Shown: positions 1,392-18,421 of the stretch, piece after piece
Position numbering within the stretch: the stretch's first letter is position 1
How the letters are laid out: each line of letters starts with the position of its first letter
NCBI GenBank assembly: GCA_040218735.1
Contig: JAVJQW010000018.1
Coordinates: forward strand, 32,001-96,000
DNA from: Deltaproteobacteria bacterium
GTDB lineage: Bacteria; Myxococcota; Kuafuiibacteriia; Kuafuiibacteriales; Kuafuiibacteriaceae
Reading direction: 5' to 3'
Length of the DNA: 64,000 nucleotides
Program-made: the position numbers and the translations under genes
The notes under the pieces: model-generated
Databases searched by the model: none
What the model was told of the DNA's origin: nothing
Seen by the model: the letters and a program-made list of their open reading frames with translations, nothing else

Positions 1392-3116
1392 TCAGTCGTT
1401 CACGCGTCGCCGCGCCCTGCGCACGACGGCCTCCCGGAGCGCGCGCAGCGTCACCGGCTTCGCGACGACCTCCTGCATCCCGGCCGCTTCACACATCGCG
1501 ACCTCCTCCGCGAAGGCGGAGGCCGTCAGCCCGATGATCGGCGTCTGGCCCACCTCCCCTTCGAGCGCGCGGATGCGCTCGGTCGTCTCGGGCCCATCCA
1601 GCCCGGGCATGAGTCTGTCCATCAGCACGAGCGCCACGGTCTCGTTCTGCACGGTCGTGATGGCGTCCTCGCCGTTGTCGACCGTCTTCGTGCGACAGCC
1701 GAGGTGGAGCAACATCTTCTCCGCCACCTTGCGGTTCGTGGGGTTGTCGTCGACCACGAGCACGATGCCATCGAGCTGCGGGAGCGGTCCGTCGTCCGGC
1801 CCGGCGGCCGTGTCGGAGAGCGGTCGTACCGACGCCGTCTTCAGCGGAAGAACGAAGCTGAAGCGACTGCCGCGACCCAGCGTGCTCTTCACTTCGATGC
1901 GACCGCCCATCGCCCGGACGAGGTGCTGGCTGATCGCGAGCCCGAGTCCGGTGCCGCCGTACGTTCGATGCACGCTCGCGTTGGCCTGGGAGAACGGGAT
2001 GAACAACCGCTCCAGCTGCTCCGCCGCGATGCCGACGCCGGTGTCCTCGACCGCGAGCTCGATACGCCCGTCCTGCGGCTGAACGGACACACGAACATGG
2101 CCACGCTCCGTGAACTTCACCGCGTTGCCGATGAGGTTGAGGAGCACCTGCCGCAGACGCGCGCCGTCGCCGACCACGTACTTGGGCGCGCCGGCCGCGA
2201 CGTCCAACTTCAACTCCACGCCCTTGTCCTGCGCGCGCGCGCGCAGCAGCTCGACGGAGCTTTGAACGCAGTCTTGCAGCGAAAACGGCGCGCGCTCCAG
2301 ATCGACCTCGCCGGCTTCGAGCTTCGAGAAGTCGAGGATGTCGTTGAGGATGGAAAGCAGCGCCTCACCCGACGTGAACACCATCTCGGCCAGCGTGCGG
2401 TCCTCTTCGTGCAGCTCGCCGCGCCGAAGGAGATCCGCGGACGCGAGCACACCGTTCATCGGCGTACGGATCTCGTGGCTCATCGTCGCGAGGAACACCG
2501 ACTTCGCCTGGTTCGACGCCTCCGCGAGCTGGCGTGCTGCCTCGAGTCGCTCCGCGAGCTGACGGTTCTCGCGGAAGTAGAAGCCCGCGAAGATCGTCAT
2601 CACCACGAGCTGGTTCGTCGCCATGATGGCCATCTCCAGCTGTGACGTCTCGACCAGCGGGTTCGCGATCCACCCCGCGTCACGCGCGACGGCCATCGGT
2701 ATCGCGGTGAGCACCGAGACGATCGCCACACCCCAACCCGCCTTCGGGCCCAAGATGTAGACCGCTCCCGCGAGGAGCACGGTGTCCCAGGTGAACACCA
2801 CCACCATGCCGCCGAGCTCGAGTGCGTTGAAGACCAGCGCGAGGTGGCCGGCCGCGAGCACCGCCACCGCGGCGACCCACAACCGCTTCGTCAGTCTGAG
2901 CAACGTCGCGCCGACCAGGAACGTCGTGAGCGGAACGACGTGGGACACGAGGATCCGCCCGCTGTCCGCGAACCGCGCGACGCCCGCGATGATCAGCCCG
3001 AGCGACGCGAGCACGAACAGCATCTGAACCAGGCGCGCGCGCACGCGGAGGTGCGGATCGGCGAGCACCTCATCGGGGATCGTCGCGTCGAGCCAGGCGG
3101 TAGGGCGAAGCGCCAT
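1392..3116 (-). CDS. Membrane-bound hybrid sensor histidine kinase / response regulator
   Basis: N-terminal TM helices, H-box FLATMSHEIRTPMNG, LLNLIGNAVKFT, DTGVGI, GGTGLGL, C-terminal REC (VVDDN, LMDRLMPGLDG, KP). Confidence 0.95.
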   Translation of the reverse strand: MALRPTAWLDATIPDEVLADPHLRVRARLVQMLFVLASLGLIIAGVARFADSGRILVSHVVPLTTFLVGATLLRLTKRLWVAAVAVLAAGHLALVFNALELGGMVVVFTWDTVLLAGAVYILGPKAGWGVAIVSVLTAIPMAVARDAGWIANPLVETSQLEMAIMATNQLVVMTIFAGFYFRENRQLAERLEAARQLAEASNQAKSVFLATMSHEIRTPMNGVLASADLLRRGELHEEDRTLAEMVFTSGEALLSILNDILDFSKLEAGEVDLERAPFSLQDCVQSSVELLRARAQDKGVELKLDVAAGAPKYVVGDGARLRQVLLNLIGNAVKFTERGHVRVSVQPQDGRIELAVEDTGVGIAAEQLERLFIPFSQANASVHRTYGGTGLGLAISQHLVRAMGGRIEVKSTLGRGSRFSFVLPLKTASVRPLSDTAAGPDDGPLPQLDGIVLVVDDNPTNRKVAEKMLLHLGCRTKTVDNGEDAITTVQNETVALVLMDRLMPGLDGPETTERIRALEGEVGQTPIIGLTASAFAEEVAMCEAAGMQEVVAKPVTLRALREAVVRRARRRVND

Positions 3117-3183: not shown

Positions 3184-4482
3184 TCATCGACGACGCACGA
3201 GCTTGGCCGCGAAGAAGCCGTCTGGACGCCCTTCGTGATGCGGGCCGGTCCTGAGAACCTGTTCGATATCGAAGCGGTCTTCGAGCGCGGCGAGGTGCGC
3301 CTCGCCTTCGGCTCGCGTCACGGTACACACGGAGTACACGAGCACGCCGCCCACCCGAACGCGCTCCGCGCCGGCCGCGAGCACTTCGTCCTGGGTCTCG
3401 GTGAGTCCCGCGATGTCGGCGTCTGTCAGACGCCAACGAATTTCGGGGTGGCGGCGGAGCGTCCCGAGCCCCGAGCAGGGCGCGTCGACGAGCACACGAT
3501 CGAACGTCTCGTCCGGGAGCACCTTCTGAATCTCAATGGACTCGAGTCCGAGGCGTTTCGCGGAGGTTGCGACCCGAGCGAGGCGGTTGGGGTGCCGGTC
3601 GTGCGCGACCACGTGCCCCGTGTCGTCCATGCGCTCGGCGATGTGTGTCGTCTTTCCGCCGGGTGCGGCGCAGACGTCGAGGATGCGCTCGTTGGGCTGT
3701 GGATCGAGCAACATGACGACGCGCATCGACGCCTCGTCCTGAGGCGTGGCGCGACCCTCGCGGACACACAGGAGCTCCGCTGGCAGGACACCCCCGGCGG
3801 TCGAGTAGACGGCGCCGTCCACGACGCCGAGCTGACCGTGAATTTCGTTCGCGATCGCTTCCGCCGAGGTTCGGCGCTGATTCGCACGAAGCGTGAGCGG
3901 TGCCTCGTCCAGGGACGCGAGCGCAAAAGCGAGCGCTTCCTCGTCGCCGAGGTCCTTCACCAAACGCGAGCTGATTCCTTTCGGCAGCCCGCCGCAGACG
4001 GCCACATGTCCCACCGGGTCTCGCGATCGGTCGGGGACCTCGGGCAGGCGAGCGTCCGCCGGCGCCCGCGCGAGTTTGCGGAGCACCGCGTTCACGAAGC
4101 CACCGCCCTTGGGGCCGCGGCGTCGCTTGGCTTGATCCACCGCCGCCTGCACCACGGCGTGGTCCGGCACGCGGTCGAGGTACATCAGCTGGTACGCGCC
4201 GATCCGAAGCACGTCGATCAGCTTGGGGTCGACGTCCTTGGTCCGTTTGTCCGCGACGTGCCCGATCGCGAGGTCGAGGAACCCGCGGCGCCGGAGCACC
4301 CCGTAGACGATCTCCGTCGCGAGGCCGCGGTCCGCGGGGGACAGCGAGCGCTGCTCGAAGGCATTTCGCAGCGCCGTCGAGGCGAACGCGTTCTGCGTAA
4401 ATACGCGGAACAACACATCGAGCGCCACGTCGCGCGCGGTCCACGTCCGCGGCGTTCCGCGTTTGGGCTGAGTTTTCGACAT
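3184..4482 (-). CDS. rsmB: 16S rRNA m5C967 methyltransferase RsmB/Sun
   Basis: NusB-like N-terminus (FVNAVLR), QDEAS, LDVCAAPGGKT, VDAPCSGLG, YSVCT, DGFF. Confidence 0.93.
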   Translation of the reverse strand: MSKTQPKRGTPRTWTARDVALDVLFRVFTQNAFASTALRNAFEQRSLSPADRGLATEIVYGVLRRRGFLDLAIGHVADKRTKDVDPKLIDVLRIGAYQLMYLDRVPDHAVVQAAVDQAKRRRGPKGGGFVNAVLRKLARAPADARLPEVPDRSRDPVGHVAVCGGLPKGISSRLVKDLGDEEALAFALASLDEAPLTLRANQRRTSAEAIANEIHGQLGVVDGAVYSTAGGVLPAELLCVREGRATPQDEASMRVVMLLDPQPNERILDVCAAPGGKTTHIAERMDDTGHVVAHDRHPNRLARVATSAKRLGLESIEIQKVLPDETFDRVLVDAPCSGLGTLRRHPEIRWRLTDADIAGLTETQDEVLAAGAERVRVGGVLVYSVCTVTRAEGEAHLAALEDRFDIEQVLRTGPHHEGRPDGFFAAKLVRRR

Positions 4483-4516
4483 CGCCAGGGAGGGTTTCGG
4501 TGCGCCCGGCGTAGGA

Positions 4517-5137
4517 ATGGTCGAGCGGAGGGATGTCCGTCAACCCGAGTTCGGGGCGAAGGACGACCAGCCGGAAGGGAATCGACGAATGGTGGCAGTG
4601 CTCGAATCGCAGGCTAGCGGGGGGGACCCGAAGGACGCACGTCGCAGCGCCGCGCAAGCGGCGGACGTGTTGGCGATGGCGCGGGCGGCGCTCGACGGTG
4701 TCGAACGCGCGCTCCGCAGCGCACCCGAGGTCCAGGCGAGCCGGGTGATGTCGCGCTGGCCGCTGTCGCTCGAAGACCTCCTGCTGGAGCTGGAACCCAC
4801 GGCCGACCAGACGACGCTTCGGGAGCTGGCGCCTCGTCTGGGGGTGTCCGTGGGGCAGGTTCGATCGACCGCGCTGCGCCTTCAGCGCATGGGGATGGTG
4901 AAGGTGACCGCGGACGGCGTCGCGATGACGTCGGCGGGGCGGTCGAAGATGGCGCGCTTGGACGCGGCGCGGTCGGCCGTCCTGCGTCGCCTGGCGGAGC
5001 GGCTCGAGCCGCTGTCGTCGGGTGATTCCGATCAGCTCCTCGCGCTGCTCGTCGACCTGGTGGGTGGGATCGACCGGTTCGTCAACGAGCAGACACGCGG
5101 GGGCCCGACGATCGAAGGGTTGCGTCTGTCGCGTTAG
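4517..5137 (+). CDS. MarR-like winged-helix regulator (start uncertain)
   Basis: [29 protein letters not shown]...MTSAG wHTH pattern followed by helical region. Confidence 0.55.
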
Positions 5138-5154
5138 CGCGATTTGGTCCCGCG

Positions 5155-5838
5155 GTGGCCCCCGCGCGACCGATTCAGATTGCACCCTCGATCCTTTCGG
5201 CCGACTTCGGCCGCCTCGCGGAGGAGATCCGCGCGGTGGACGAGGCGGGCGCCGACCAGATCCACGTCGACGTCATGGACGGGATGTACGTCCCGAACAT
5301 CACTATCGGCCCGCTGATCGTGAAGGCCGCGCGCAAGGCCACGAAGAAGCCGCTCGACGTGCACCTCATGATCGTCGAGCCCGAGCGCTACGTCGAAGAC
5401 TTCATCGAGGCCGGCGCGGACACCGTCACGGTCCACGCTGAGGCCGCGACGCACCTGCACCGCGTCATTCAGCAGATCAAAGGGGCGGGCGCGCGCGCGG
5501 GGGTGTCGCTGAACCCGAGCACGCCGCCGGACGTCCTCGACTACGTGCTCGGCGACCTCGACCTCGTCCTCGTGATGAGCGTCAACCCAGGTTTCGGCGG
5601 GCAGTCGTTCATCCCCGCCGTCGTGCCGAAGATCGCCGCCATCCGCGAGCGCCTCGAGGCCCGCGGCCGCGCCGGTGAGGTCGACATCGAGGTCGACGGC
5701 GGCATCAAGCCCGCCACGGCCCCGGCGGTCGTCGAAGCGGGCGCCAACCTGCTCGTCGCGGGCTCCGCGGTCTTCAATCAGCCCGACTATCGCGCCGCGA
5801 TCGAGGGCATCCGCAACGCGGGGCACCAAAGGCATTGA
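5155..5838 (+). CDS. rpe: Ribulose-phosphate 3-epimerase
   Basis: [44 protein letters not shown]. Confidence 0.97.
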
Positions 5839-5863
5839 CAGCCGGCCCCACCGAAGCATAAAC
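5835..5863 (+). promoter_or_regulatory. Probable sigma-70 promoter for tRNA-Pro
   Basis: Perfect TTGACA at 5835-5840 overlapping the rpe stop; weak -10-like CATAAA 16 bp downstream; about 65 bp before the tRNA. Confidence 0.5.
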
Positions 5864-5927
5864 GCTTGCTTCCGCGACGGGAGGTCGGCCCAACGGCCAT
5901 CGCTCCGCCGCGAAAAAATCGACCTTA

Positions 5928-6002
5928 CGGGGTGTAGCTCAGCTTGGTCAGAGCGCTTGGTTCGGGATCAAGAGGTCGGAAGTTCAAATCTTCTCACCCC
6001 GA
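5928..6002 (+). tRNA. tRNA-Pro (anticodon CGG), CCA not encoded
   Basis: Acceptor CGGGGTG/CACCCCG, D-arm GCTC..GAGC, anticodon stem CTTGG/TCAAG with loop TTCGGGA, T-loop TTCAAAT. Confidence 0.96.
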
Positions 6003-6006
6003 CTAG

Positions 6007-6048
6007 AAGGGCCCGAGAACACTGGTTGTTCTCGGGCCTTTCGCTTTT
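6007..6048. terminator. Intrinsic terminator hairpin between convergent tRNA and RT
   Basis: aagggcccgagaaca-ctggt-tgttctcgggccttt, 15-bp stem with one G-U, followed by T-rich run; possibly bidirectional. Confidence 0.75.
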
Positions 6049-6058
6049 CTCGGGCGCC

Positions 6059-7342
6059 CTAATCGTCGAGCTTCGCGAGCCGGTCCAGGAACGCGCGGCC
6101 CTTCTTCGGGTCCGTCATGTACACGTACGCGGCCATCCCGCGGAGCTCCGACACCGACTCCTTGGCGCCGCGCCCCAACTCCAGGTTCTTGATCGCCGCA
6201 CGGAGGTTTCGGACCGTCCGGCGGGGCACGCGCGCTTTGATCTCATGATCGTCGTTCACCACCAGGCCCGTGATCTGCTGCCGGCGCCCGCGCCGTAGCA
6301 CGCGCGTCTTCTTCCGGTTCACCCAGAAGCCCTCGTCACGCACGATGCCGCCGACCACCTTGAGGAGCGGTCCTATCGGCGCGTCGTCCTTCTTCCCGTG
6401 CCACGAGAACGTCAGGTCGTCCGCGTAGCGCGTGTAACGAAAGCCGAAGCTCTTCACCAACGCGCTGATGCGCGCGTCGAGGCGCAGGCAGATCGCGTTC
6501 GTGATCGACGGGCTCGTCGGCGCGCCCTGCGGGAGCGACCGCGCGCCCGTCGCCACGTAGTACGTCTTGCCCTTCATCTCGATCGTCTCGCGCGGTGACT
6601 CCGTCACCAACAACGCGAGGATCGTCGCGACCTGCTCGCCGTAACCCGCCTTGCGCAAGAGCCCCTTCACCCGCGGCGTGGTGATCGTCGGGTAGAAGTC
6701 CGACAGATCGATCTTCACCACGATCTCCGCCCCCGCGTGCACGCGCGCGTTGGTCACCGTGCTGCGCCCCGGCAGGAACCCGTGCGCCGCGCCGTGCACC
6801 GGGAGGTGCTCCGTGATCTTCTGCGCGATCCAGTGCTGCACGCGTTTCAGCTCCGGCTTCGGCGCGGAGATCAAACGCTGCCCACCCGTGCGCTTCGGCA
6901 CCGTCCACCGGTGGTAGTGCGTCCCGCGTTCGACCTCGCGGTGGTACGCCAACCAGCGCAGCCGCGGGATCGTCACGTCCAACGCCTTCGCCAACGCCGT
7001 CACGTCCGCGAGGTCCGGCAGGTCGTTCTCCCGGCGGCGCGCCTCGGCATCTTCGATGTCGAACTTGTCGACGTCCGCGGTGTCGTGATGGAAGACGCCG
7101 ACGCCCACGTGCACCAGGTGCGCCCCGCGGTACGCCGACCACGCGTGACGCTTCAGCGTCTTCCGCACCCGCCGCTCTTCTTCGCGCCGCGCCTTGTACT
7201 GCTTCTTCTCCGCGTCCGAGAGCGTGGACGTGTCGCGGTTGTCGATCAGGTCGCGGCGCATCAGCTCGGCGTGGACCCAGGCGTCCACGCCGCCTTCGGC
7301 CGCGATGACGTCCCAGGCGGGGAGGGCGTTCGGTTCGGTCAT
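6059..7342 (-). CDS. Retron-type reverse transcriptase, Mx162-like
   Basis: PKRTGG.R.ISAP, HGF, region X TNARVH (NAxxH), KIDLSDFYP, LPQGAPTSP, YADD, region Y ITGL; N-terminal extension resembles myxobacterial Mx162 RT as recalled. Confidence 0.96.
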   Translation of the reverse strand: MTEPNALPAWDVIAAEGGVDAWVHAELMRRDLIDNRDTSTLSDAEKKQYKARREEERRVRKTLKRHAWSAYRGAHLVHVGVGVFHHDTADVDKFDIEDAEARRRENDLPDLADVTALAKALDVTIPRLRWLAYHREVERGTHYHRWTVPKRTGGQRLISAPKPELKRVQHWIAQKITEHLPVHGAAHGFLPGRSTVTNARVHAGAEIVVKIDLSDFYPTITTPRVKGLLRKAGYGEQVATILALLVTESPRETIEMKGKTYYVATGARSLPQGAPTSPSITNAICLRLDARISALVKSFGFRYTRYADDLTFSWHGKKDDAPIGPLLKVVGGIVRDEGFWVNRKKTRVLRRGRRQQITGLVVNDDHEIKARVPRRTVRNLRAAIKNLELGRGAKESVSELRGMAAYVYMTDPKKGRAFLDRLAKLDD

Positions 7343-7369
7343 GCCGTCGTCGGTCTTCGTCGTCGTCTC

Positions 7370-7653
7370 TTCAGAACTGTCGTCAACGAGGTGGGGAAGC
7401 CGTAACTCGCTACTTCCTTACTCGGGACACGGTAGGCTCACCGGTTTGGCCCCCGGAGGGGGTACTATCGACTGGGCCTGAACGACGGATGCGTGGTTGG
7501 CCCAGCTAGGCCCGTCGATAGTACCCCCTCCGGGGAGCCAAACCACGCATAGCCTACCTTGTGGTGAATGCCGAACGATTGAGCTCGGACGGCGCTACGC
7601 CGCCCTGAAGCTAACAAGGCCGACTTCCCCACCTCGGTGGCGACAGTTCTGAA
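7370..7653 (-). ncRNA. Retron msr-msd non-coding RNA
   Basis: Outer inverted repeats 7370-7399 / 7624-7653 (28/30), msd hairpin 7443-7479 / 7508-7544 plus 7431-7438 / 7551-7558, msr hairpin 7587-7605; directly upstream of the RT. Confidence 0.92.
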
Positions 7654-7687
7654 TCTCGAAACTACTTCGAAGGACCTCCCCCTTTCC

Positions 7688-9496
7688 TCACCCCGACTCC
7701 GCCGACGTCGAGTCGATGTAGCCGCGTTCCGCGAGGCCGTCGAGCCTCGCGAAGTACTCTTCTTTCGCTTCCTCGGCCGAGCCGAAGAACAACCGATGCA
7801 TCCGCATCGCGTCCAACGCTCGACCCCACCGCAAGACGACTTGCCGGTCGTCGAGCGAGATTCGGTAGGTCGTCGAGCCGTCACGTTCGCGGCGGATCAA
7901 CGTCCGCGTCTCCGCGCGGATCAACTTACGACCCTCTTCCGTGTTGCGCGCCGCTTCGAGCTCCGCGCGTTTGCGGGCGTACGCGAGGCGCAGCGCGATC
8001 ATCGGCACCGTCGGACCTTCGCGCAACCCCGCGCGACGGAACTGCGGGCTCGTGCAGGTCGCGTCGACGGTGCGCCCCTCGCGGTCCAGCGTGAACGACG
8101 TCGAGTAGACGCGGTGTGCCTTCTCGTCCGCGACCGTCCCTTCGATCCGCATCCCCTCCGCGCCGAGGTCGTGCAGCTTCGTGATCTCCACCTGGCCGGG
8201 TGTCTGTAGCAGCCGGTGCGCCTCGGCTTCGCCCGCGTCGCGGTAACGCACGTGCTCGCGGTCGATCGCATCCGAGAACAACGCCCGCGCGCGGAACACC
8301 GCGGCGGGGACGTCGTGCACCACCCGGCCCCGCTCGATCTCCGCGAGGAGCGCCTGCCGGATCGCGTTCGTGCTGCGCCCGAGCTCGGACGCGAGCGCCG
8401 TGATCGACGCCGGCCCGTGACCGAGCCGCTGCAACACCCGCGGCGCGAGCAAGTCGTCCGTCGTACCCGCCGCGAGCAGGTCGAACGTCGCGATCCCCGC
8501 CCATCCGCTGTCGACCCAGCCCGACAACGACAACGTCAGCTGCGCGTCGCCGAGATCGACCACGTAGGTCGCCGGCAGCCCTGCGCCGAGGACCCGCACT
8601 TGGACCTTCTTCGCGTGCGGCAACACCCGCGCGAGCGCCATCAACCGCTTGCGCCCCCACGTCCGCAGGATGATCGGACGGTCGCCTTCGTACGGCCCCG
8701 CGGTCCCCGTGAACACGAGGTCCCACGGCTCGAGCACCAGACGCGGCGCCTCACCCGGGACCAGCTCGTAGCGCAACGCCCGCGGCGACGTGCGCGCGCG
8801 CTGACGCTTGAGCGTGAGGAGCACGTTGTAGAGATCGACCGGCGCGAGCTCGAACGTCGACGCCGGGAGCGTCGACGCCGCCTGCACCTGACCGAACGCA
8901 CGAATCCAGCGGTACGGCACGGCGATCTCACGGTCCTCGCCGCTCGCGCCGGGCCGCACGGTCAGCGAAGTGGTGCGGTACGAACGAATGCGGGCGATCG
9001 ACTCCAGCGCCGCCGCCGTCAGGTTCAGGTTCGTGGTCCCCGATTGGAACGAAGGCGCCGAGAACGCTTCGCGCGCGAGGAACAACCGCGCGTACGAAGA
9101 CTCGTCGCGGGAGAACACTTCGAGCGCGACGCCGTCCTCCGTGACGTGCAGGATCGGATCGAGCGGCGCCGCGACCTCCTCCTGCTCGCCGTACTTCGCA
9201 TCGAGGTAGGCCTTCTGGGCGTTCCACAGCTCGTTCGACGCCGCCTTCCCCTTCGTCGCGAGGTACGCGAGATAGTCCGACCGATCCTGCGCCTTGAACC
9301 GAAGGTCGCTCGCCAACACGTCGCCCACGCCGAGCAACGCATCACGCGCAACCTCCGGCCGCACCAGCTCACCCGACACCGACGGGCCCGCGCGCATCGC
9401 GTCGGTCGAGAGCATGACGTCGAGTCGATCGCCATCGACGGTCGGTGCGACGGGCGCGTCGTAGCGAACGACGACGCGTTTGGTCTCGGCGCTCAT
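7688..9496 (-). CDS. Retron-associated protein with degenerate SWIM-like finger and C-terminal WGR domain
   Basis: DPILHV..DGVALEVFSRDESSY, WIRAFGQVQ, RTWGRKRL, DATCTS...GPTVPMIALR, VVLRWGR...RGY; ATGA overlap with upstream gene. Confidence 0.8.
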   Translation of the reverse strand: MSAETKRVVVRYDAPVAPTVDGDRLDVMLSTDAMRAGPSVSGELVRPEVARDALLGVGDVLASDLRFKAQDRSDYLAYLATKGKAASNELWNAQKAYLDAKYGEQEEVAAPLDPILHVTEDGVALEVFSRDESSYARLFLAREAFSAPSFQSGTTNLNLTAAALESIARIRSYRTTSLTVRPGASGEDREIAVPYRWIRAFGQVQAASTLPASTFELAPVDLYNVLLTLKRQRARTSPRALRYELVPGEAPRLVLEPWDLVFTGTAGPYEGDRPIILRTWGRKRLMALARVLPHAKKVQVRVLGAGLPATYVVDLGDAQLTLSLSGWVDSGWAGIATFDLLAAGTTDDLLAPRVLQRLGHGPASITALASELGRSTNAIRQALLAEIERGRVVHDVPAAVFRARALFSDAIDREHVRYRDAGEAEAHRLLQTPGQVEITKLHDLGAEGMRIEGTVADEKAHRVYSTSFTLDREGRTVDATCTSPQFRRAGLREGPTVPMIALRLAYARKRAELEAARNTEEGRKLIRAETRTLIRRERDGSTTYRISLDDRQVVLRWGRALDAMRMHRLFFGSAEEAKEEYFARLDGLAERGYIDSTSAESG

Positions 9497-12400
9497 GTCC
9501 GGGCCTCCCGTTGCTGCTGCCGCTGCGCGCGGCGCAACGCCTTGAAGGTCGCGGCGCGGACGGCGTCCGGCTCACCCTCGGTGTCGAGGATCGACTGCAG
9601 CGCGTTCGCCGCCGCGTCCGTCCCGACACGACCGAGCGCGTAGATCGCGGAGAGACGCGCGGCGGACTCCCCGGACCCCGCCGCCGTCGCGACGAGCGCA
9701 TCCACGCGCCGATCCCCGACCGCGGAGAACAGCGCGATCGGCCGCTCGTCGGACGCGAGCACCGCCGTCGCGTCGGCGTCGAGCGCCGCGCTTACCATCG
9801 GGCCCACCGCGCCCGGATCCGGCACGGCGGTCTCGCGGAGAATCGCGGGCGCGGCCGCAGCGTCGAGCGCGACGATGGTCGCAGCAGCCGCCGCGCGCAC
9901 CGAAGCGTCGGACGCGGACAGCGCCGGCTTCAAACGCGCCACGTCGCCGGCGCTCCCCACCGCTGCGATGAGTCGGAGCGCCTCCACCCGCACGTCGGCC
10001 GGCGCATCCTCCGAGGTGATCGCTCGATACGCCGCCGCGCTCGCGTCGGCCTTCAGGCGCGCCGCCGCCCACATCGCGGCGTGCCACGCGCGGTGGTCCT
10101 TCTCTCGCTCCGAACGCTCCAGCGCTCCGAGGACGTCCGGGCCGAGCGCGAGGTTGCCGGCGGCGCCCGCGAGGAACGCAGCCTCGGCGCGGGCGTGGCC
10201 GTCGTCGCTCGCGAGGAGCGCACGCAGCTCTTCGGACGGCGCGAGGCCGCGCCGTGCGAGGCCGAGCCGCAAACGTCGACGCACTTCGCGATCTTCGATT
10301 GCCGCGATGCGCGAAACGAGGGTCGCGGCGTCGCCGCCCTTCGCGAGGAACGCCGCCGCCGGCGCGCTGACGTCCGAGTGTTGGCTGTCGAGCGCGTGCA
10401 GCGCGACGCGCGTCGGGTCGTCCGCGAAGGTCTTCGTGAGCGCCGCGAGGGCCTTCCGTCGCACCGCCCGATCGGGATCACCGAGTGCGTCCGCGAGCAC
10501 CAGCTCGGACGCGGCCGGTGCGAGGACGATCAGCTGATCGATCGCGAAGCGTCGCAGGTTCAGATCGTCGTAGCGGTCCGCGACGATGCGTTCGATCTGC
10601 TCGCGGCTCGCGTCGTCGCCCGCCCGTCGCAGCCCGGTGATCGTCTGGCGGCGAACGTCCGCCGTCCCCTCACGCGCGAGGCGCACCACCGTGGAACGGA
10701 TCTCTCGCCGCCGCTCTTCATCGACGATCCGCGGCACCATCGACGCGAGCGCCTCGGCCGCGAAGGGCACGAGCGCAAGGTCCGCTTCCTCGAGCTCTGC
10801 GCTCGGATCCACGAACGCGATCAGCTCATCGACGGCGCGGTCGTCTCCGAGCACGCCGAGCCCGAGCATCGCCTGCTGTCGCTCATGCGGCAGTCCGGCC
10901 TTCAGCACCAGCAGCAACGGCCGGAACGCCTCGACGCGGCCGCGCACCGCGAGGCCGACCGCCGCGGGGAGCACCAGCTCGCGTCGGCCGGCGGCGATCG
11001 CGCGCTCCAACGCGGCGATCGAAGCACCTTCGATGTGCTCGGCGCGGAACGCGATCGACTCGGCGGCGGCGACGCGCACGTCTGCGTCGCGGTCGTCGAT
11101 CAGCTTGGCGAGGGTCACCTCCGCGTCCGCGTCCTCGACCGCGTTCAACAGCGTCGCCGCGGCGATACGCAGCTCGGGGCGAATGCTCGCCGCCGCGACG
11201 CCCGCGTACCGAATCGCGAGCGCGTCGTGGTAGCGCAGGCGTGCGCCGCCGTCGGTGATCGGGACGCTGGGCCGCGACGTGTCGCGCGCGATCGCGACGA
11301 GCGCTTCCCACCCCGTGTCGCCGAGCGCGGTGTCCTCGTCCGCGAGGATCGCGAAGAGTGTGTCGGACGCCGCGTCACTCCCGATGCGGCCGAGCGCCCG
11401 GACGATAGCGCGGCGGTCCGCGGTGGCGTCGGGGTCGTCTTCGAGGCGGCCGGTGAGGGCGGTCGCCGCCGTCGCCGCATGTTCGTTTGCGGCCGACGCC
11501 AACGTCACCAGCCCGTCGATCGCGCGCGAGGCGGTGCGTTCGTCGTCGCTCCGCAGGAACCCGGCGAAGACGTCGGCGGTGCGGGGGTCGCCACGACGCG
11601 CCAGGCTGCGCGCCGCCTGCATTCGCAGATCTTCGTGGTCACTCTCCAGCGCGCGCCCGAGCGCGGCGCGGATGCGTGCCTCGTGGTCGTCGGCGTTGGG
11701 CAGCGCGGCGAGGCGGTCCACAACGAGTCGTCGCACGTCGGCGAACGGGCTCTCGAGGGCGATGAACCAAGGCTCGAGGCTACCCTCCTCGAACAATCGA
11801 GGCAGCCGCGACAGCGCGTGGGCGCGCGCATCACGGCTCTTCGCCGCAAGCGTGCGCGGCGCGAGCTCGCGCGCGGCGGCGTCGCCCTCCAGCGCTCGCT
11901 CGATCACGAGATCCACCGCCGTGCGTCCCACATCGTCCGCCGACGAATCGAGCGAAAGCAGCAGAGGTGTGATCGGGTCTTCGGGGTACAGCTCGGTCAG
12001 CGCCGTCTGCGCGCGGCGCCGCACGAGGTGGTGCGGATCCGACAACGCCCGGCGGACGATCGGCAGCACGGCGTCGCGTCCCACGGACGCCAGCGACGAC
12101 AGCGCGACGAGCCGCGCGACGCTGTCGCGGCGAACGCGGTGGGTCTCGTCGGCTTCGCCCTCGGGCGGCGCCTGACGGACGAGCCCGGCGTAGGTGCCGA
12201 ACAGCACCTCGTCGACCGGCCCCGGCTTGGCTTCGCCGCGGGCGAACAGGCGACGCAGCCAACCCTTCTTGGTTCGGGTGCGCGACTCGTCTTCCCAGTT
12301 CGTGTGCGGGCGCGCGCCACCGCCGGGTCTCGCGAGCCGACGCGCTTCACGCCAGTAGCCCTTCGGCGTCGCGCGGAGCTCCAACACACGCGCGGCGGCG

Positions 12401-15400
12401 TAGCGCTGCTCCGGGTCGTCGCTCGCGAGCGCCGCGACGACCACCGACAACAGCCGGGCCTGCTCTTCCTCCGACGGAAGGTCCTTGGGCTTCGCTCCGC
12501 GCTCCGGAGTCTTCGGCCCGACCATCGAACGCGCGACGTCTCCGATGGCCTCCTCGTCCGTGCGTGTCTCGAGCGCGCGCGCCGCCGCGAAGCGAACCTC
12601 CGGGTGCGCGCTCGAGAGCGCGAGCACGAGGAGGTCCGGTACGAGCCCCGCCCGTGCGAGCGCGATGTCACGTGCGACGACGATCGCGAGCACGAGGTCC
12701 GCGACCTCGCGATCTGGATCCTGAAGCCCGGCGAGCAACCCGCGCACGCCATCGGGGCCGAGCGCGACGAACCCGAGGATCGCGCCGACGCGTATCGGGC
12801 GGTGATCGTGCGTGAGGGTGCCGGCGAGAACGACGGCCGCGCGGTCGTCGCCGAGGCGCGCGAGGCCCTCCGCCGCCCAGCTCCGCACCGCCATGTCCGC
12901 GTGCGCGAGCGCGTCGACCAGCGGCTTCTCGCGCCCGGGTCGACACGCGGTCGCGAGGCCACGGGCGCCCATCTCGCGGACCGTGCCGTCCTCGTCGTCG
13001 AGGAGGGAGATATAGAACGGGATGACGCTCGGGTCGCCGACGTCCGCGAGCGCCCGCGCCGCGCGTGCGCGCAGGTCGTCGGTCGGGCGATCGAACGCGA
13101 TCTTCGGGATGCGCAGGAGCGCCTTAATCGGCTCCACGGCGCGTTTGTCACGACGTTTGCCGAGCAGCTCCGCCGCGCGCACCCGCAGCTCGAAGAACAC
13201 ACTCGCGAACGCACGCCGGTATGGTTCGACGTCCTGGTGGAACATCGCGTCCGCCGCTTCGATCGCCGCGAGGTGAACGTCACGGTGCTCCTCCGTGATG
13301 AGCTCGAGGAGGCGGGCGCGGAGATCCTCGGCCGGCGCGCGGCGACAGCCCTTGCACCCGGCGGCGCGGACCTCGGGCCGCGGCGAGTGGAGCGCCATCA
13401 GGAACACGTCGGACTTGGTCTCCTCCGCTTCGTCCTTCGTGATCGCTTTCAGCGCGGCGAGCCCCACGTCGGACGACGCGTCCGCGACGAGCGCGAGCAA
13501 CAGACGCCGCGCCCACTCGCCCTCCGCCTTCGCGAGGCGGTCCACGACGGAGCGCCGGACGTCGGCGTGTCTCGAACCCGCGCCCCGCCGCAAGGCAGGT
13601 TGCAAGTCTTCGCTGTGCCACGCGAGCAGCGTGCGCAGCGCCTCGGTGCGGACCTTCGAGGACTCGTCGTCGAGCGCGCGCCCGAGGAGCTCGTCGGCGC
13701 GGGACTCACCCTGCGCGGCGACGACGAGCGCGAGCGATCGGCTCCGGATGTCGTCGCGGCCCGCGTCGAGGGCGAGCGCGGCGAGGTCGAGGCGGGCGTC
13801 GGTGCCCTCTCCCGCGAGGTCGAGCAGAGCCTCGAAGGCCGCGTTGGCGATCTTCTCGCTGGTGTCGTCGAGCAGCCATGACAGGCGCGCGGTCGCGCGG
13901 TCGTCGTTTGGTATCGCGCGCGCGGCGACGAGGAGCGGCGCGACGACCATCGCGCGGACTTCGTCTCGGCTCTCGCGGCTGAGCTGCAGCAGCGCGCCCA
14001 CCGCTCTCAGATCTCCGAGCGCGGCGAGGCGCGCGGCGCCGAGCAACGCGGCGTCCGCACGACGACACGCGAGCGCGGCGAACAGCGGGACGAGGTCGGC
14101 CTCCTCGGGGGCGCCATCGGCTGCCGCCGTGCCGATCGCCTCGAGCGCCTTGGCGGCGTCGGGGTCGACGGCCGCGAGGCGGGCGGCGAGCCGAGGGCGT
14201 GCGGCGACGGCGACGTAGAACGCGGTGCGCCGGATCGCCGCGTCGTCGTCGTCGAGCGAGCGTTCGACGAGGTGCTGTCCGTCGGGGGTCGCGGAGAGGT
14301 TCGACTTCGCGAGGCGGAGGAGCGTCGCCTTGCGAACGTCCGGCGGCCCCCGTTCCAGGGCGACCTCCGCTGCGGCGAGCGGCGCGTCGCGCTCCAGCGT
14401 GAACAGCGATTCGAGCGCGGCCTTTCGGACCTCGTCGTCGCCGTCCGAGAGGCTTCGCGCGACGAGCCCGGGCACCAGCGGCGACGCCGCACGGTGCGCG
14501 GGGAGCCGCTCCACCGCGAGCTTGCGGAGGTCCGCGTGGCTCGAGCTCAGCGCTGCGGTCAGTGGTCCGACGGGGGTTCGAACGTCGATCGTCGCCAGCG
14601 CATCGAACGCTGCGCGGCGCGCACCGGCGTCGGCGTCGTTCAGAGCCGACTTCAGCGCGCCTCGCGAGCGACGCCGTTCGCCCCGCCCGATGGCGGCGGC
14701 GGCGGCCTTGCGGACCTCGGCGTCGCGGTCCTGGGTCAGCGCGCGGTCGAGTAGCTCGCGGGCTTCGTCTTCCGCGAGGCCCTCCAGCATCATCACCGCG
14801 TCGAGCCGCGCTTGGCTGCCGCGTGCGCCGAGGTCGGCCGAGAGGCGCTCGAACGCGGAGCCGTAGCGCTTCGTCTTGTGGGGTGCGCCCTTGCCGTCGA
14901 GGCCGACGATCGTCAGGCGCCGGTCTTCGCCGACCAACGCGATTCGCTCGGCGTCCAGCAGCACGCCGGACGTCAACGTACCGCCGACCTCGGTGAGCTT
15001 CGGTTTGCGACGGCTGTCGACGAACCACGACGCGAGGTTGCCGTCCTGCCCGACGGAGTGCAGCCGCCCGGGCCCCACGAACAACGCGACCACCGGACCG
15101 CGGTGGGCCTGGTCGCCGGAGCGGTCCTCTTCGTCGACGGCGCCCTCGAGGAAACACAGGCGAATCGATCCGTCCCCGCACCCCACCGCGACTCGACCGT
15201 CGCCCGTGAACGCGAGTGAACGTACGCCGCCTTCGCCGCACGGCATCCGGCGCGGCTCGCCGCTCCGCATCGCGAACACGACGCCTTCGTCGCCGCCGGT
15301 CGCAACGGTCTCACTGCTCGGGTCGAAGGTGGTCGCGCGCAGCGGCTCCTTCGACAGCACGACCGACGTCAGCTCGGTGCCGTTGGCGTCGAGCACGAGC

Positions 15401-15753
15401 ACCGACCCGTCTTCGCGCGCGGCGTAGACACGTTGGTCCGCGACCAGCGCGTTGGTCTTCGAGCCCGGGTGTGCGGCGCCGAGTGTCGGTCGGTTGCCGG
15501 AGAGGTCGTAGATGGTGAGGCCGCCGCGCTCGTCGGCGACGAAGAGGCGGTCCTCGCCCGAGAAGGCGAGCGCCGTGACCGGCGCGCCGACGTCGATGGC
15601 GTGTTTGGGCTCCAGCTTCTTGCCTTCGAAGACGTGAACGGTGGAGGCCGCGACGTTCGGCGCGTCGCGCCGCCCGCCGATCGCGACGCGCCGCCCTGAA
15701 GGCGTGCATGCGACCGCGGTGAGTCGCTCGAGGTGCGGTCGGAAGTCAGCCAC
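9493..15753 (-). CDS. About 2086-aa WD40-like beta-propeller + HEAT/ARM-repeat protein
   Basis: N-terminal blades (VTALAFSG, VRSLAFTGDGRVAVGCGDGSIRL) then many L.D.D..VR..A HEAT motifs; start moved to GTG 15753 (GGGGAG RBS, overlaps upstream stop). Confidence 0.85.
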   Translation of the reverse strand: MADFRPHLERLTAVACTPSGRRVAIGGRRDAPNVAASTVHVFEGKKLEPKHAIDVGAPVTALAFSGEDRLFVADERGGLTIYDLSGNRPTLGAAHPGSKTNALVADQRVYAAREDGSVLVLDANGTELTSVVLSKEPLRATTFDPSSETVATGGDEGVVFAMRSGEPRRMPCGEGGVRSLAFTGDGRVAVGCGDGSIRLCFLEGAVDEEDRSGDQAHRGPVVALFVGPGRLHSVGQDGNLASWFVDSRRKPKLTEVGGTLTSGVLLDAERIALVGEDRRLTIVGLDGKGAPHKTKRYGSAFERLSADLGARGSQARLDAVMMLEGLAEDEARELLDRALTQDRDAEVRKAAAAAIGRGERRRSRGALKSALNDADAGARRAAFDALATIDVRTPVGPLTAALSSSHADLRKLAVERLPAHRAASPLVPGLVARSLSDGDDEVRKAALESLFTLERDAPLAAAEVALERGPPDVRKATLLRLAKSNLSATPDGQHLVERSLDDDDAAIRRTAFYVAVAARPRLAARLAAVDPDAAKALEAIGTAAADGAPEEADLVPLFAALACRRADAALLGAARLAALGDLRAVGALLQLSRESRDEVRAMVVAPLLVAARAIPNDDRATARLSWLLDDTSEKIANAAFEALLDLAGEGTDARLDLAALALDAGRDDIRSRSLALVVAAQGESRADELLGRALDDESSKVRTEALRTLLAWHSEDLQPALRRGAGSRHADVRRSVVDRLAKAEGEWARRLLLALVADASSDVGLAALKAITKDEAEETKSDVFLMALHSPRPEVRAAGCKGCRRAPAEDLRARLLELITEEHRDVHLAAIEAADAMFHQDVEPYRRAFASVFFELRVRAAELLGKRRDKRAVEPIKALLRIPKIAFDRPTDDLRARAARALADVGDPSVIPFYISLLDDEDGTVREMGARGLATACRPGREKPLVDALAHADMAVRSWAAEGLARLGDDRAAVVLAGTLTHDHRPIRVGAILGFVALGPDGVRGLLAGLQDPDREVADLVLAIVVARDIALARAGLVPDLLVLALSSAHPEVRFAAARALETRTDEEAIGDVARSMVGPKTPERGAKPKDLPSEEEQARLLSVVVAALASDDPEQRYAAARVLELRATPKGYWREARRLARPGGGARPHTNWEDESRTRTKKGWLRRLFARGEAKPGPVDEVLFGTYAGLVRQAPPEGEADETHRVRRDSVARLVALSSLASVGRDAVLPIVRRALSDPHHLVRRRAQTALTELYPEDPITPLLLSLDSSADDVGRTAVDLVIERALEGDAAARELAPRTLAAKSRDARAHALSRLPRLFEEGSLEPWFIALESPFADVRRLVVDRLAALPNADDHEARIRAALGRALESDHEDLRMQAARSLARRGDPRTADVFAGFLRSDDERTASRAIDGLVTLASAANEHAATAATALTGRLEDDPDATADRRAIVRALGRIGSDAASDTLFAILADEDTALGDTGWEALVAIARDTSRPSVPITDGGARLRYHDALAIRYAGVAAASIRPELRIAAATLLNAVEDADAEVTLAKLIDDRDADVRVAAAESIAFRAEHIEGASIAALERAIAAGRRELVLPAAVGLAVRGRVEAFRPLLLVLKAGLPHERQQAMLGLGVLGDDRAVDELIAFVDPSAELEEADLALVPFAAEALASMVPRIVDEERRREIRSTVVRLAREGTADVRRQTITGLRRAGDDASREQIERIVADRYDDLNLRRFAIDQLIVLAPAASELVLADALGDPDRAVRRKALAALTKTFADDPTRVALHALDSQHSDVSAPAAAFLAKGGDAATLVSRIAAIEDREVRRRLRLGLARRGLAPSEELRALLASDDGHARAEAAFLAGAAGNLALGPDVLGALERSEREKDHRAWHAAMWAAARLKADASAAAYRAITSEDAPADVRVEALRLIAAVGSAGDVARLKPALSASDASVRAAAAATIVALDAAAAPAILRETAVPDPGAVGPMVSAALDADATAVLASDERPIALFSAVGDRRVDALVATAAGSGESAARLSAIYALGRVGTDAAANALQSILDTEGEPDAVRAATFKALRRAQRQQQREART

Positions 15754-18421
15754 GTCGCGGCTCCCCGACGGCCGGCGGCAGCTTCGTCTCGACGTCGCCG
15801 TGTGTCGCGCGGATGCGCGCGAGCGCCGCGACGCACGCCTGCCACTCCCCCTGGGCGGCCGAAGCCATGAACTCGTCGAACACCGGCACCACGACGTCGG
15901 CGAAGGCGCGGTCTTCGATCGCGAGGTCCCGCATGACCTCGACGAGCCGCCGCTTCGCGACGCTCGCCGGGAACGGACGCGCGGGTGCGAGCTCGGCGTC
16001 GAGCTCTCTTCGTTCCATACGACCCGGCGGTAGCCCGAACAAGACGGTGCGGAGGAACTGCCGGAGCGCCTCGCCAGACGCGCCTTCACGGCCGTGTTTG
16101 CGCCACAACAGGCGCACCGCGAAGAGCCGCACGTCGCGGTCGGGGCTCTCCATCAGCCACGCGAGGCGCCGTGCGCCGCCGACGCGATCGTAGTGTCGCT
16201 CGATCAACGTCAGCGCGATCTCGCGCGTGGCCTTCACGTGGCTCTCGGCGAGCGCGAACAACCGCACGTCGTCGAGCCACTCCGACGGCACCGAGATCTC
16301 CGCGTCCTCGTCACCGATACCGAACAGCGCCTCGGCGGCGAGCTGTCGCCCCTCGCGGAAGCGGCTGTCGGCGAGCTCGTACACGAGCGCCGCGTCGCCC
16401 CAGCGCACGAGCTCCTGGCGCCCGACTCGTACCGCGAGGCGGCGTACGTCGGCGCGCTCGTCGGTGAACCCGGAGCGCACGTAGGCGAGGCCGTACGCGG
16501 CGTGGTCGAGCTTCGGCGCGATGGCGAGTGAGCGACCCTCGTTGGTCGTCGGTCCGAGCACCGGGTGGTGCACCGCAAGGTAGGTTGCAGCGAACCGACG
16601 CACGGGCTCCGCCTGCTTCGGCCCCGTCGCGAGGTGCCACAGGCGCTCGATGCCGCCGAAGTCGTCCGGTGTGAAGTGCTCGAGGAGGTACTGGTGCGCG
16701 AAGCTCGCGAGCGCCTCGTCCGTGCGCCGTGTCATCGCGAGGAGCCACTCCAGCCCGACGCGCCCCGGCCGCACGAGCTTCGGGTTGGAGAGGATGCCGA
16801 TCGCCAGCGGCCGCAGGCTCGGCCGCATCACGAGGCCCTTCACCCACTCCACGTCGAGCGCGTCGCCGGACAGCATTCCGTCGAGCAGCCAGCGGGACAC
16901 CGTGGACTGCAGCGCCGGGTTCATCACGGCCTCTTTCAGCCACGCCGCGCCGATCTCCTGGCCGCTCCGGGTCGAGAGCATCTTCAGGGCGTCGCGCCGC
17001 TCCGACCAGCCGCAGCGCCGGTCCTCGAGGAGCTGCGTGAGGTACGCCGCGGGGATGGTTTGCTCCGCGTCTCGGAAGAGCTTCTCGACGAGCCCCTTCA
17101 TCTCGCGGCCGCTCGTGTAGAGCGCGATGAACTGCTCGGCGCTCAGGTCACGAGGCTGGTACCCGCGCCGCAGCATCTCGGTCGCCAGCTCGCGCGCGGC
17201 GCGTACGCGGAGAAGTCGCGTGAGGTGGTCGAGGCCGATCGTCTTCGGGTCGAGCTTGCCGAGGCGCTCGAGCGCGAAGTCACGGGCGTCGGCCGGACCT
17301 TCGACGAGCTCGACGAGGCGGTCCACCGGGAGGTTCGGCACGTGCGCGCGAACGTAGGCGAGGGCGTACCGCCGCGCGGCTTCGCTCTCGCTGTCGAGGA
17401 AGCGGACCACCATGTCGCCGAGTCCGAGTGCGGCGAGCTTCGACTGGTGCAGCTCCGGGCTCTCTTCGAGGAGGCGCACCACGAACGCGTGCACGGAGCC
17501 GAGCGGACGGCGCGCGATGCGCTCCAGCCACTTCGGATCCACCTTCTCCTTCTCGCCGGGGAAGTCCGTCTCGATGCAGCGAATCGCGAAGCGACACACG
17601 GAGTCGTTGTTCGCGTCCTCCAGGAGGCGCAAGACAGGTTGCGGCGACGCCTTCCACGCCTCGTGGGCGTAGCGCTTCTCGAGATCGTCCGGCGGCCCGT
17701 CCATCCACGACGAGCCGCTCCCCTCGTACTCCAGATCCGCGTGCGCCCAGATCTGATTCGCGACCCACGACCCCGCGAACTTGAACCGCTGCGGATAGTG
17801 GCTCAGGACCTGCGCGGCGAGCGATGGATAGACGTCCGGCAGCGCGCGGCCGAGCTCGCGGAGGTACCGCCACGCGCGCCGCCGCATGTACAGGACGGTG
17901 CCGGGGAGGATCTCGTCGGTGCGGTACGGCGTCTGCGGGAGGGCGTCGAGGCGCCACAGGAGCACGCCGAGCATCCGCACGTCGTGTTCGTCCTCCGCGC
18001 GTTTGTAGATCGCCTTGAACGCCTGCCAGGTGCCCCACCCGAGTCGGGCGCGCGCGAAGACGTCGACGAGGAGCTGCCGATGCCACGCGTCGCCGCCCTC
18101 GTAGAACGCGGTGAGCATCGGCCCGAGGTCGAGGCGCGGCGGGTGATGGGGCGCGGCGATCACCTGCTTCCACGCCTCGGCGCGTATCACCTTCTTCTCG
18201 TCGTCGGTCTTGCCGTCGAGGGTGTTCGGGTGGAGCGAAGTGCGGAGCCGCTGAAGCGTGAACGCATCCGCCGCCGCCGGGTCGGCTTCGTCGGCACCCT
18301 CCGCGCGGTCCTCGGGCGGGTCGGGTTGCTCGAGGTAACTCACGATCAGAGCGGCCGCCTCCGGGCTCCGATCGTCGAGCGCGCGCTGGACGTCTGCAAA
18401 CGTGATGGCGGCGCCGCTCAT
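15746..18421 (-). CDS. 891-aa alpha-helical (ARM/HEAT-like) protein, first gene of the retron operon
   Basis: Start moved to ATG 18421; WQAFKAIYKRAE, TVLYMRRRAWRYLRELG, repeated L.W / D.R.FA helical units; strong GC3 bias. Confidence 0.75.
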   Translation of the reverse strand: MSGAAITFADVQRALDDRSPEAAALIVSYLEQPDPPEDRAEGADEADPAAADAFTLQRLRTSLHPNTLDGKTDDEKKVIRAEAWKQVIAAPHHPPRLDLGPMLTAFYEGGDAWHRQLLVDVFARARLGWGTWQAFKAIYKRAEDEHDVRMLGVLLWRLDALPQTPYRTDEILPGTVLYMRRRAWRYLRELGRALPDVYPSLAAQVLSHYPQRFKFAGSWVANQIWAHADLEYEGSGSSWMDGPPDDLEKRYAHEAWKASPQPVLRLLEDANNDSVCRFAIRCIETDFPGEKEKVDPKWLERIARRPLGSVHAFVVRLLEESPELHQSKLAALGLGDMVVRFLDSESEAARRYALAYVRAHVPNLPVDRLVELVEGPADARDFALERLGKLDPKTIGLDHLTRLLRVRAARELATEMLRRGYQPRDLSAEQFIALYTSGREMKGLVEKLFRDAEQTIPAAYLTQLLEDRRCGWSERRDALKMLSTRSGQEIGAAWLKEAVMNPALQSTVSRWLLDGMLSGDALDVEWVKGLVMRPSLRPLAIGILSNPKLVRPGRVGLEWLLAMTRRTDEALASFAHQYLLEHFTPDDFGGIERLWHLATGPKQAEPVRRFAATYLAVHHPVLGPTTNEGRSLAIAPKLDHAAYGLAYVRSGFTDERADVRRLAVRVGRQELVRWGDAALVYELADSRFREGRQLAAEALFGIGDEDAEISVPSEWLDDVRLFALAESHVKATREIALTLIERHYDRVGGARRLAWLMESPDRDVRLFAVRLLWRKHGREGASGEALRQFLRTVLFGLPPGRMERRELDAELAPARPFPASVAKRRLVEVMRDLAIEDRAFADVVVPVFDEFMASAAQGEWQACVAALARIRATHGDVETKLPPAVGEPRRG

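Follow-up and report, generated by a model that had tools for sequence, protein, structure and literature searches.

Gene content of the locus

The window, by which we mean the whole 64,000-nucleotide stretch of DNA analysed here, carries a retron-type gene set entirely on its minus strand, in the order HEAT/ARM gene, SWIM gene, noncoding RNA and reverse transcriptase (RT) gene. The HEAT/ARM-repeat partner protein (9493-16089, minus strand; 2198 aa) matches the PADLOC model HEAT-ARM_XIII with an E-value of 0 and 1189.9 bits, spanning profile positions 6-1968 of 1972, and also matches Pfam HEAT_2 (E 1.7e-73), while its N-terminus gives weak Pfam matches to WD40/beta-propeller families. The SWIM_XIII partner protein (7688-9496, minus strand; 602 aa) is a full-length match to the PADLOC SWIM_XIII profile (E 8.4e-145). 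The retron RT (6059-7342, minus strand; 427 aa) is recognised by PADLOC RT_XIII (E 9.1e-156) and by Pfam RVT_1 (E 8.8e-22), and scores 517.5 bits for RT_XIII versus 311.9 bits for the runner-up PADLOC model. Retron RTs carry the motifs NAXXH in region X, YADD, and VTG in region Y, the glycine of the last being the most conserved residue, as described in Mestre 2020 and Simon 2019; the enzyme encoded here has NARVH, equivalent to NAXXH, at residue 198, YADD at residue 306, and ITG at the VTG site at residue 357. According to Mestre 2020, type XIII is defined by RT clade 10 together with SWIM and HEAT/ARM partners, and has the validated members Mx162, Mx65, Sa163 and Ne144. In the same account, the protein linked to type XIII RTs has a winged helix as well as a DEDE motif and carries a SWIM zinc finger (CxCx12CxH) at its C-terminus, and a HEAT/ARM-repeat protein precedes in many, although not all, members.

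The nearest named relatives of the RT occur in Kofleriaceae metagenome-assembled genomes (62% identity), and the closest relative overall is at locus L012 (75% identity); within the phylum, RT_XIII at E ≤ 1e-90 is present in 132 of the 401 genomes sampled. The source genome (11.6 Mb in 70 contigs) additionally encodes, on another contig, a second retron-like RT of 402 aa (L005, G000:C9:462865-466662), which PADLOC matches best to RT_other (3.7e-128) and RT_outgroup, and both of whose neighbouring frames are without a PADLOC match. No sigma-70-like promoter was found within 5800-8000, and the template RNA may share a transcript with the genes upstream of it. At the Rfam gathering threshold, tRNA alone passes across the whole window, with no retron family among the matches, and a permissive search of 7250-7750 (E up to 10) returned four weak matches, none with an E-value better than 0.29, to three microRNA families and a snoRNA family.

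Several features flank the retron on its RT side. A tRNA-Pro(CGG) gene (5928-6003, plus strand) is convergent with the RT gene and lies ~55 nt past the RT stop codon, accompanied by a strong terminator-like hairpin at 6006-6042; a tRNA within ~1.5 kb was seen in none of 10 related retron loci scanned. A hybrid histidine kinase with HisKA, HATPase_c and receiver domains (1392-3116, minus strand) is found ~3 kb downstream of the retron, and neither of the two open reading frames in between (3533-5185 and 5134-5859, on the minus strand) is matched by Pfam, NCBIfam or PADLOC.

Predicted fold of the intergenic RNA

The 306-nt minus-strand RNA has a minimum free energy (MFE) of -193.6 kcal/mol, compared to -114 on average (sd 5.3) among 100 shuffles that preserve dinucleotides, none of which folds as well (z = -14.9); the plus strand folds more weakly, at -181.8 kcal/mol. 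In the MFE structure, paired ends (a1/a2) enclose an msr hairpin and a long msd stem-loop, in line with the general retron plan, which has one to three msr hairpins. The outer closing helix is formed by a2 at the 5′ side (7621-7653) and a1 at the 3′ side (7370-7402), two arms that a repeat search also returns as 33-nt inverted repeats with 91% complementarity and a spacing of 218 nt, and that pair at 31 of 33 positions (13 + 2 + 16) with 2 mismatches in the MFE fold. The initial annotation had described outer repeats pairing over 30 nt with two mismatches, three additional pairs, and then an unpaired G at 7620 as the candidate priming residue. The pairing is reproduced, ending in U7623-G7400, C7622-G7401 and G7621-C7402, and G7620 is indeed predominantly single-stranded (P(unpaired) 0.955). 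What had been overlooked is that G7620 and C7619 (P(unpaired) 0.993) constitute a two-nucleotide internal loop (7619-7620), beyond which the closing helix resumes for seven more pairs between the inner arm of a2 (7612-7618) and the inner 3′ arm of a1 (7406-7412), the latter covarying in the family described below.

Within the closing helices, the msr hairpin with a UAG loop that had been predicted earlier was recovered at 7587-7605 (8 bp, 3-nt loop), where GGGCGGCG (7605-7598) pairs with CGCCGUCC (7594-7587). A weak second msr hairpin of 4 bp (7573-7586) is confined to the window's own MFE fold; as a family element it was rejected, given that RNAalifold predicts no conserved helix at 7586-7573. 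The msd starts with a basal stem of 7551-7562 (5′ arm) against 7427-7438 (3′ arm), which is both an inverted repeat (I6; 12 nt, 92% complementary) and an MFE helix (3 + 8 bp), and the 3′ arm of which is part of the segment that the initial annotation had likened to the Mx162 msd. The main stem above, 7508-7545 against 7442-7479, is backed on both arms by the MFE fold and by family covariation, and comprises 9 + 22 + 6 = 37 bp with single-base bulges at 7536 and 7473; the one bulge per arm noted earlier therefore stands, but the stem is 37 bp long rather than 36. It ends in an apical region (7480-7507) of conserved sequence, near-invariant in the alignment and shared with Mx162-like loci.

One further pairing is available to the msd, namely a perfect 10-bp match (I8) of 7489-7498, in the conserved tip, with 7541-7550, in the lower msd stem (5′ arm). 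Either a conformer of the RNA or DNA that competes with the main fold or chance might account for it. As an instance of covariation it was discounted, relatives forming a similar pairing in a different register.

Homologous RNAs and covariation

A BLAST search of the RNA against the 401 sampled genomes gave matches in nine, including its own, of which two were short and weak, and a search for relatives through the RT alone gave three loci, with L001 ending 100 nt upstream of the RT. Eight genome loci align across the whole RNA and were built into an 8-sequence nhmmer profile. A conserved 19-base stretch served as a search pattern in metagenomes, yielding at least 123 stretches. Across 182 loci, the profile gave 149 matches at E ≤ 1e-5, placing the RNA in 8 genome loci and about 90 metagenome units. 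Matches spanning profile positions ≤ 45 to ≥ 262 were retained, nine duplicate loci were dropped and identical sequences were merged, leaving 98 distinct RNAs (the metagenome part drawn from among the matches listed) that were aligned by MAFFT to give alignment A1. As to gene context, for the 83 RNA-bearing metagenome loci among the matches listed, the RT lies downstream on the same strand in 51 of 52 RT matches, and the SWIM gene lies upstream in all 40 SWIM matches. The window's RNA retains every invariant position of A1.

The 8-sequence profile found no match in loci L019-L046 (600-bit RT_XIII matches, RT identity 44-51%), and these retrons presumably carry template RNAs too diverged for it. 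When a 17-nt motif was searched in L005-L046 with up to 4 mismatches, matches with two or fewer changes were confined to the close family.

RNAalifold predicts 59 pairs on A1, 41 of them compensatory. With the a2/a1 helix and an optional small hairpin added by hand, 86 pairs were counted, for which 92.7% of cells in the 98 RNAs hold standard pairs, compared to 35.4-45.3% when the partners are slid by 1-3 columns. The same structure has 1539 cells changed on both sides versus 283-437 in the slid versions, and a covariation score of 0.501 versus 0.078-0.126, and none of 500 shuffles matches it on any of five measures; these counts are to be read with the mutual relatedness of the 98 RNAs in mind.

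Taken helix by helix, the msr hairpin (columns 96-103/107-114) is 100% paired in the 98 RNAs, with changes on both sides in 5 of 8 pairs, and the msd main stem (columns 170-197/226-255) is 97.2% paired, with changes on both sides in all 28 pairs. The basal msd stem (columns 140-151/268-279) is 99.9% paired and almost invariant, an invariance that is partly forced, 19 of its bases, on the 3′ arm, having served as the metagenome search pattern; the genome-derived loci, which were found independently of the pattern, also carry this arm. The inner closing helix (columns 70-75/294-299) is 95.1% paired, with changes on both sides in 3 of 6 pairs, as illustrated by one relative that has AGUGA/UCACU where most have CGUUA/UAGCG. 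The outer closing helix (columns 46-64/306-322) shows changes on both sides in 17 of 17 pairs, with 71.1% of cells paired in the alignment. RNAalifold did not recover the a2/a1 helix on A1, because MAFFT aligns the variable flanks poorly. When flanks were instead paired sequence by sequence, duplexes of own flanks averaged -38.9 kcal/mol compared to -23.6 kcal/mol for swapped flanks, a weak control insofar as most flanks share a purine-rich consensus.

The probable priming guanosine

In the description of Simon 2019, a2 either contains the priming guanosine or stops immediately 5′ of it, and this residue lies in a conserved AGC, mostly as TAGC, with CAGC in Mx162 and Sa163 and GAGC in Mx65. 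The window has such a guanosine at 7611 (minus strand), in the context TAGC and with the inner closing helix ending directly 5′ of it. In A1, A7612 and G7611 are invariant (98/98) and C7610 occurs in 97 of 98 RNAs; on the opposite arm, G7413 and U7412 are likewise invariant (98/98). Thermodynamics does not single out G7611, since it exchanges with A7612: the window's ensemble includes states with G7611 paired to U7412 and A7612 bulged, and P(unpaired) of G7611 is 0.49. Conservation does single it out.

The same retron RNA might instead be primed from G7620, the unpaired residue at the end of the 33-nt outer repeat that the initial annotation had put forward as the branching G. Directly following a helix of 31 pairs and unpaired at 0.955, G7620 is the clearer single strand of the two. 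However, the corresponding column of A1 contains G in only 34 of the 98 RNAs (A 44, C 13, T 3, gap 4), the context is CGGC as opposed to the AGC reported in Simon 2019, and the helix continues past the two-nucleotide loop with seven further pairs that covary across the family. In addition, the Mx162-like locus described below has the G of its CAGC at the position homologous to 7611. Priming from G7620 is consequently improbable, and the earlier assignment is not supported. Because it is invariant in all 98 RNAs, stands in a TAGC context and sits at the end of a covarying inner helix, G7611, nine bases further in, is most likely the priming residue.

Predicted msDNA and comparison with a Mx162-like locus

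The extent of the msDNA was estimated from a Myxococcaceae locus, L184, located in a single-contig genome with three RT_XIII-like genes. The L184 RT is 51.5% identical to that of the window, and its RNA, situated upstream of the RT, shows visible homology with that of the window at four places: the msr hairpin, the base and tip of the msd, and a 17-base segment. Of this segment, which the initial annotation had thought reminiscent of the Mx162 msd, 16 of 17 bases are the same in L184, a locus whose geometry agrees with that published for Mx162, and the sole G/C change is compensated on the other arm. The a2 of L184 comprises 34 nt (3300-3267) and ends at the bulged G of CAGC (3266), and its first template base was placed at 3054. 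For Mx162, Simon 2019 gives a precursor of 241 nt, from which 16 nt are trimmed, an msr of 71 nt and an msd of 162 nt, with an overlap of 8 bases. Applied to L184, these figures put the 5′ end of the precursor at 3294, inside a2, and the 3′ end of the msDNA at 3215. The L184 RT frame, read from the ATG at 2976, would encode 485 aa, which we take to be the published length of the Mx162 RT. We infer that L184 is the Mx162 retron itself.

For transfer of these positions to the window, a six-sequence MAFFT alignment (A2) was rejected at the priming site, as it matches the window's TAGC with a different AGC, inside an extra hairpin of L184. Homology was therefore routed via L127, which has the extra hairpin: the CAGCC of L184 corresponds to the TAGCC of L127 in A2, and the TAGC of L127 corresponds to that of the window in A1. 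By this route, G7611, G7413 and C7444 of the window are equivalent to G3266, G3054 and C3085 of L184, the window's msd being one base longer. The predicted msd template accordingly runs over 7413-7575 (minus strand), starting at the base 5′ of the inner arm of a1 and ending by gapless homology with L184. Provided that termination is homologous to L184, the msDNA would correspond to plus-strand sequence beginning at 7413 and ending near 7575 (roughly 163 nt), with a 3′ end uncertain by several bases, as it is a gapless extrapolation from a single locus across a poorly conserved msr segment. This homology-based estimate falls within the 150-165 nt that had been predicted from the fold.

Evidence for evolution of the msd stem as DNA

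An A-C apposition in the RNA is a G-T wobble in its DNA copy. Wobbles were counted in A1 helix by helix. The msr hairpin has 77 G-U versus 0 A-C among 784 cells, and the inner a2/a1 helix has 89 G-U versus 20 A-C among 588 cells. The bias is reversed in the middle of the msd stem, with 4 G-U versus 49 A-C among 2743 cells. This pattern indicates evolution of the long msd stem in the form of hairpin DNA, and of the msr and closing helices in the form of RNA; judged from sequence comparison, the msd stem is apparently selected as DNA, which gives indirect support to the predicted production of msDNA. There is one exception in the lower msd stem, a near-fixed U-G at columns 157/264 (97/98).

The SWIM partner and the msd tip

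At residues ~478-505 of the SWIM partner, where the zinc finger would read C-x-C ... C-x-H, the protein has C-x-S ... T-x-P, so that one of four ligands is left, and it has a single cysteine in 602 aa. Elsewhere, the pattern Dx7Dx4Ex30-32Dx37E is present from residue 412. With three of the four zinc ligands replaced, the effector side may work differently or not at all. One reading of this would be an intact-looking but idle relic, in which msDNA production or signalling has been lost, for instance via the missing zinc finger of the SWIM partner. The degenerate motif and the lone cysteine are what such a relic might display. Set against this, the zinc-less form is kept in 13 rows, that of the window among them, out of 64 distinct homologue rows in the alignment (the other 51 have all four ligands), and these homologues are otherwise 65-81% identical over the rest of the protein, which argues for selection rather than decay. 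The RT, moreover, is an open 427-aa frame with NAXXH, YADD and ITG in place, and the RNA has lost none of the positions invariant in its family. We regard a relic as very unlikely.

The msd tip (7481-7506, corresponding to row-1 positions 157-182 of A1, all invariant or nearly so) stands apart from the stem that carries it. It is near-invariant in 98 homologues and recognisable in the Mx162-like loci L183-L185, and hence conserved from the Kofleriaceae-like lineage of the window to those loci, whereas the stem below varies freely, through paired substitutions of the DNA type. It is conceivable, if rather doubtful, that the invariant tip serves the msDNA as a ligand or sensor surface, which the HEAT/ARM and SWIM partners would recognise by its sequence. 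If so, recognition in the zinc-less subclade, to which the window belongs, would need another part of the SWIM protein.

Assignment and proposed mechanism

Some other palindromic element between two genes, such as a terminator, attenuator or repeat element, would also give a strong intergenic fold that belongs to no Rfam family, but this is almost certainly not what lies here, given a covarying multi-helix structure with a retron RT and a SWIM gene as its constant neighbours, a single BLAST copy in the 11.6-Mb genome, and a wobble pattern whereby one part acts as DNA. Because PADLOC assigns the gene context to type XIII and covariation across 98 homologues backs the fold, the RNA is identified with a retron, as the initial annotation had proposed. 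Specifically, minus-strand 7370-7653 very probably encodes the msr-msd template RNA of a retron of type XIII (Mx162-like), with G7611 as its priming residue and a predicted msDNA of ~163 nt.

The following sequence of events can be envisaged. The a2 (7653-7612) and a1 (7412-7370) segments would close the RNA around the msr hairpin and the long msd hairpin, as in the fold computed here. Going by the established retron biochemistry outlined in Simon 2019 and Mestre 2020, the RT would bind the folded RNA and prime from the 2′-OH of the invariant G7611. DNA synthesis would start opposite G7413 and copy the msd toward the msr up to ~7575, and host RNase H would remove the copied template. The expected product is a hairpin msDNA of ~163 nt, 2′-5′-joined to the msr RNA. 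The resulting RT-msDNA complex may then work with, or control, the two partner proteins (SWIM and HEAT/ARM), probably to defend the cell against phage, a role suggested by analogy with other retron types only; our literature searches found no experimental work on type XIII function.

Relation to known retrons

The closest known systems are Retron-Mxa1 (Mx162, from Myxococcus xanthus) and Retron-Sau1 (Sa163, from Stigmatella aurantiaca), which have the same RT_XIII class and the same SWIM and HEAT/ARM partners as the window, and share its plan, in which the a2/a1 helix is long, the priming G lies in AGC, the msr hairpin is rich in GC and the msd forms a long hairpin. The predicted msDNA of ~163 nt compares with 162 nt for Mx162. 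The window differs in its priming context (TAGC versus CAGC in Mx162 and Sa163), in lacking a small additional msr hairpin that L184 and most of the family possess, and in a closing helix that is longer than that of L184 (42 versus 34 nt on the a2 side) and includes an internal loop. The absence of three zinc ligands from its SWIM partner is a further difference. Retron-Mxa2 (Mx65) and Retron-Nex2 (Ne144) are likewise type XIII according to Mestre 2020. The priming G of Mx65 is in GAGC, thus sharing the AGC of the window in the account of Simon 2019, and the msDNAs of both, 65 nt and 144 nt as read from their names alone, are shorter than the ~163 nt predicted here. Retron-Eco1 (Ec86), of type II-A, is described as sharing the a2/a1 helix, a priming G in TAGC and copying from the 3′ side of the msd, but has an RT of another clade, another effector and a much shorter msd.

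Much of this is already known, in that publications cover the class, its partners and the overall architecture of the RNA, and the proteins would be called by standard defence-system tools; the RNA family and its priming G may also be covered by the tables and covariance models of Mestre 2020. What the present analysis contributes is (i) a corrected and testable priming site at 7611, with a predicted msDNA from 7413 to ~7575, (ii) a 98-sequence alignment that separates the fixed parts of the Mx162-type RNA (the AGC at the priming site, the template bases copied first, the core of the msr hairpin, and the base and tip of the msd) from the free ones, and (iii) evidence, drawn solely from sequence, for selection of the msd stem as DNA. 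Type XIII being without an established function, natural variants such as zinc-less SWIM partners and tandem template arrays could serve experiments.

Arrays of the latter kind were encountered among the homologues. In 11 of the 83 RNA-bearing metagenome loci among the matches listed (L069, L086, L107, L108, L116, L125, L140, L147, L153, L167 and L177), two or three complete msr-msd units follow one another head to tail; literature searches for natural tandem msr-msd arrays returned engineered arrays only. The units repeat with a period of ~265-305 nt between the SWIM gene and the RT, except in L069, where the RT precedes them. In every unit a2 and a1 form a matching set of their own, and the window carries a single unit.
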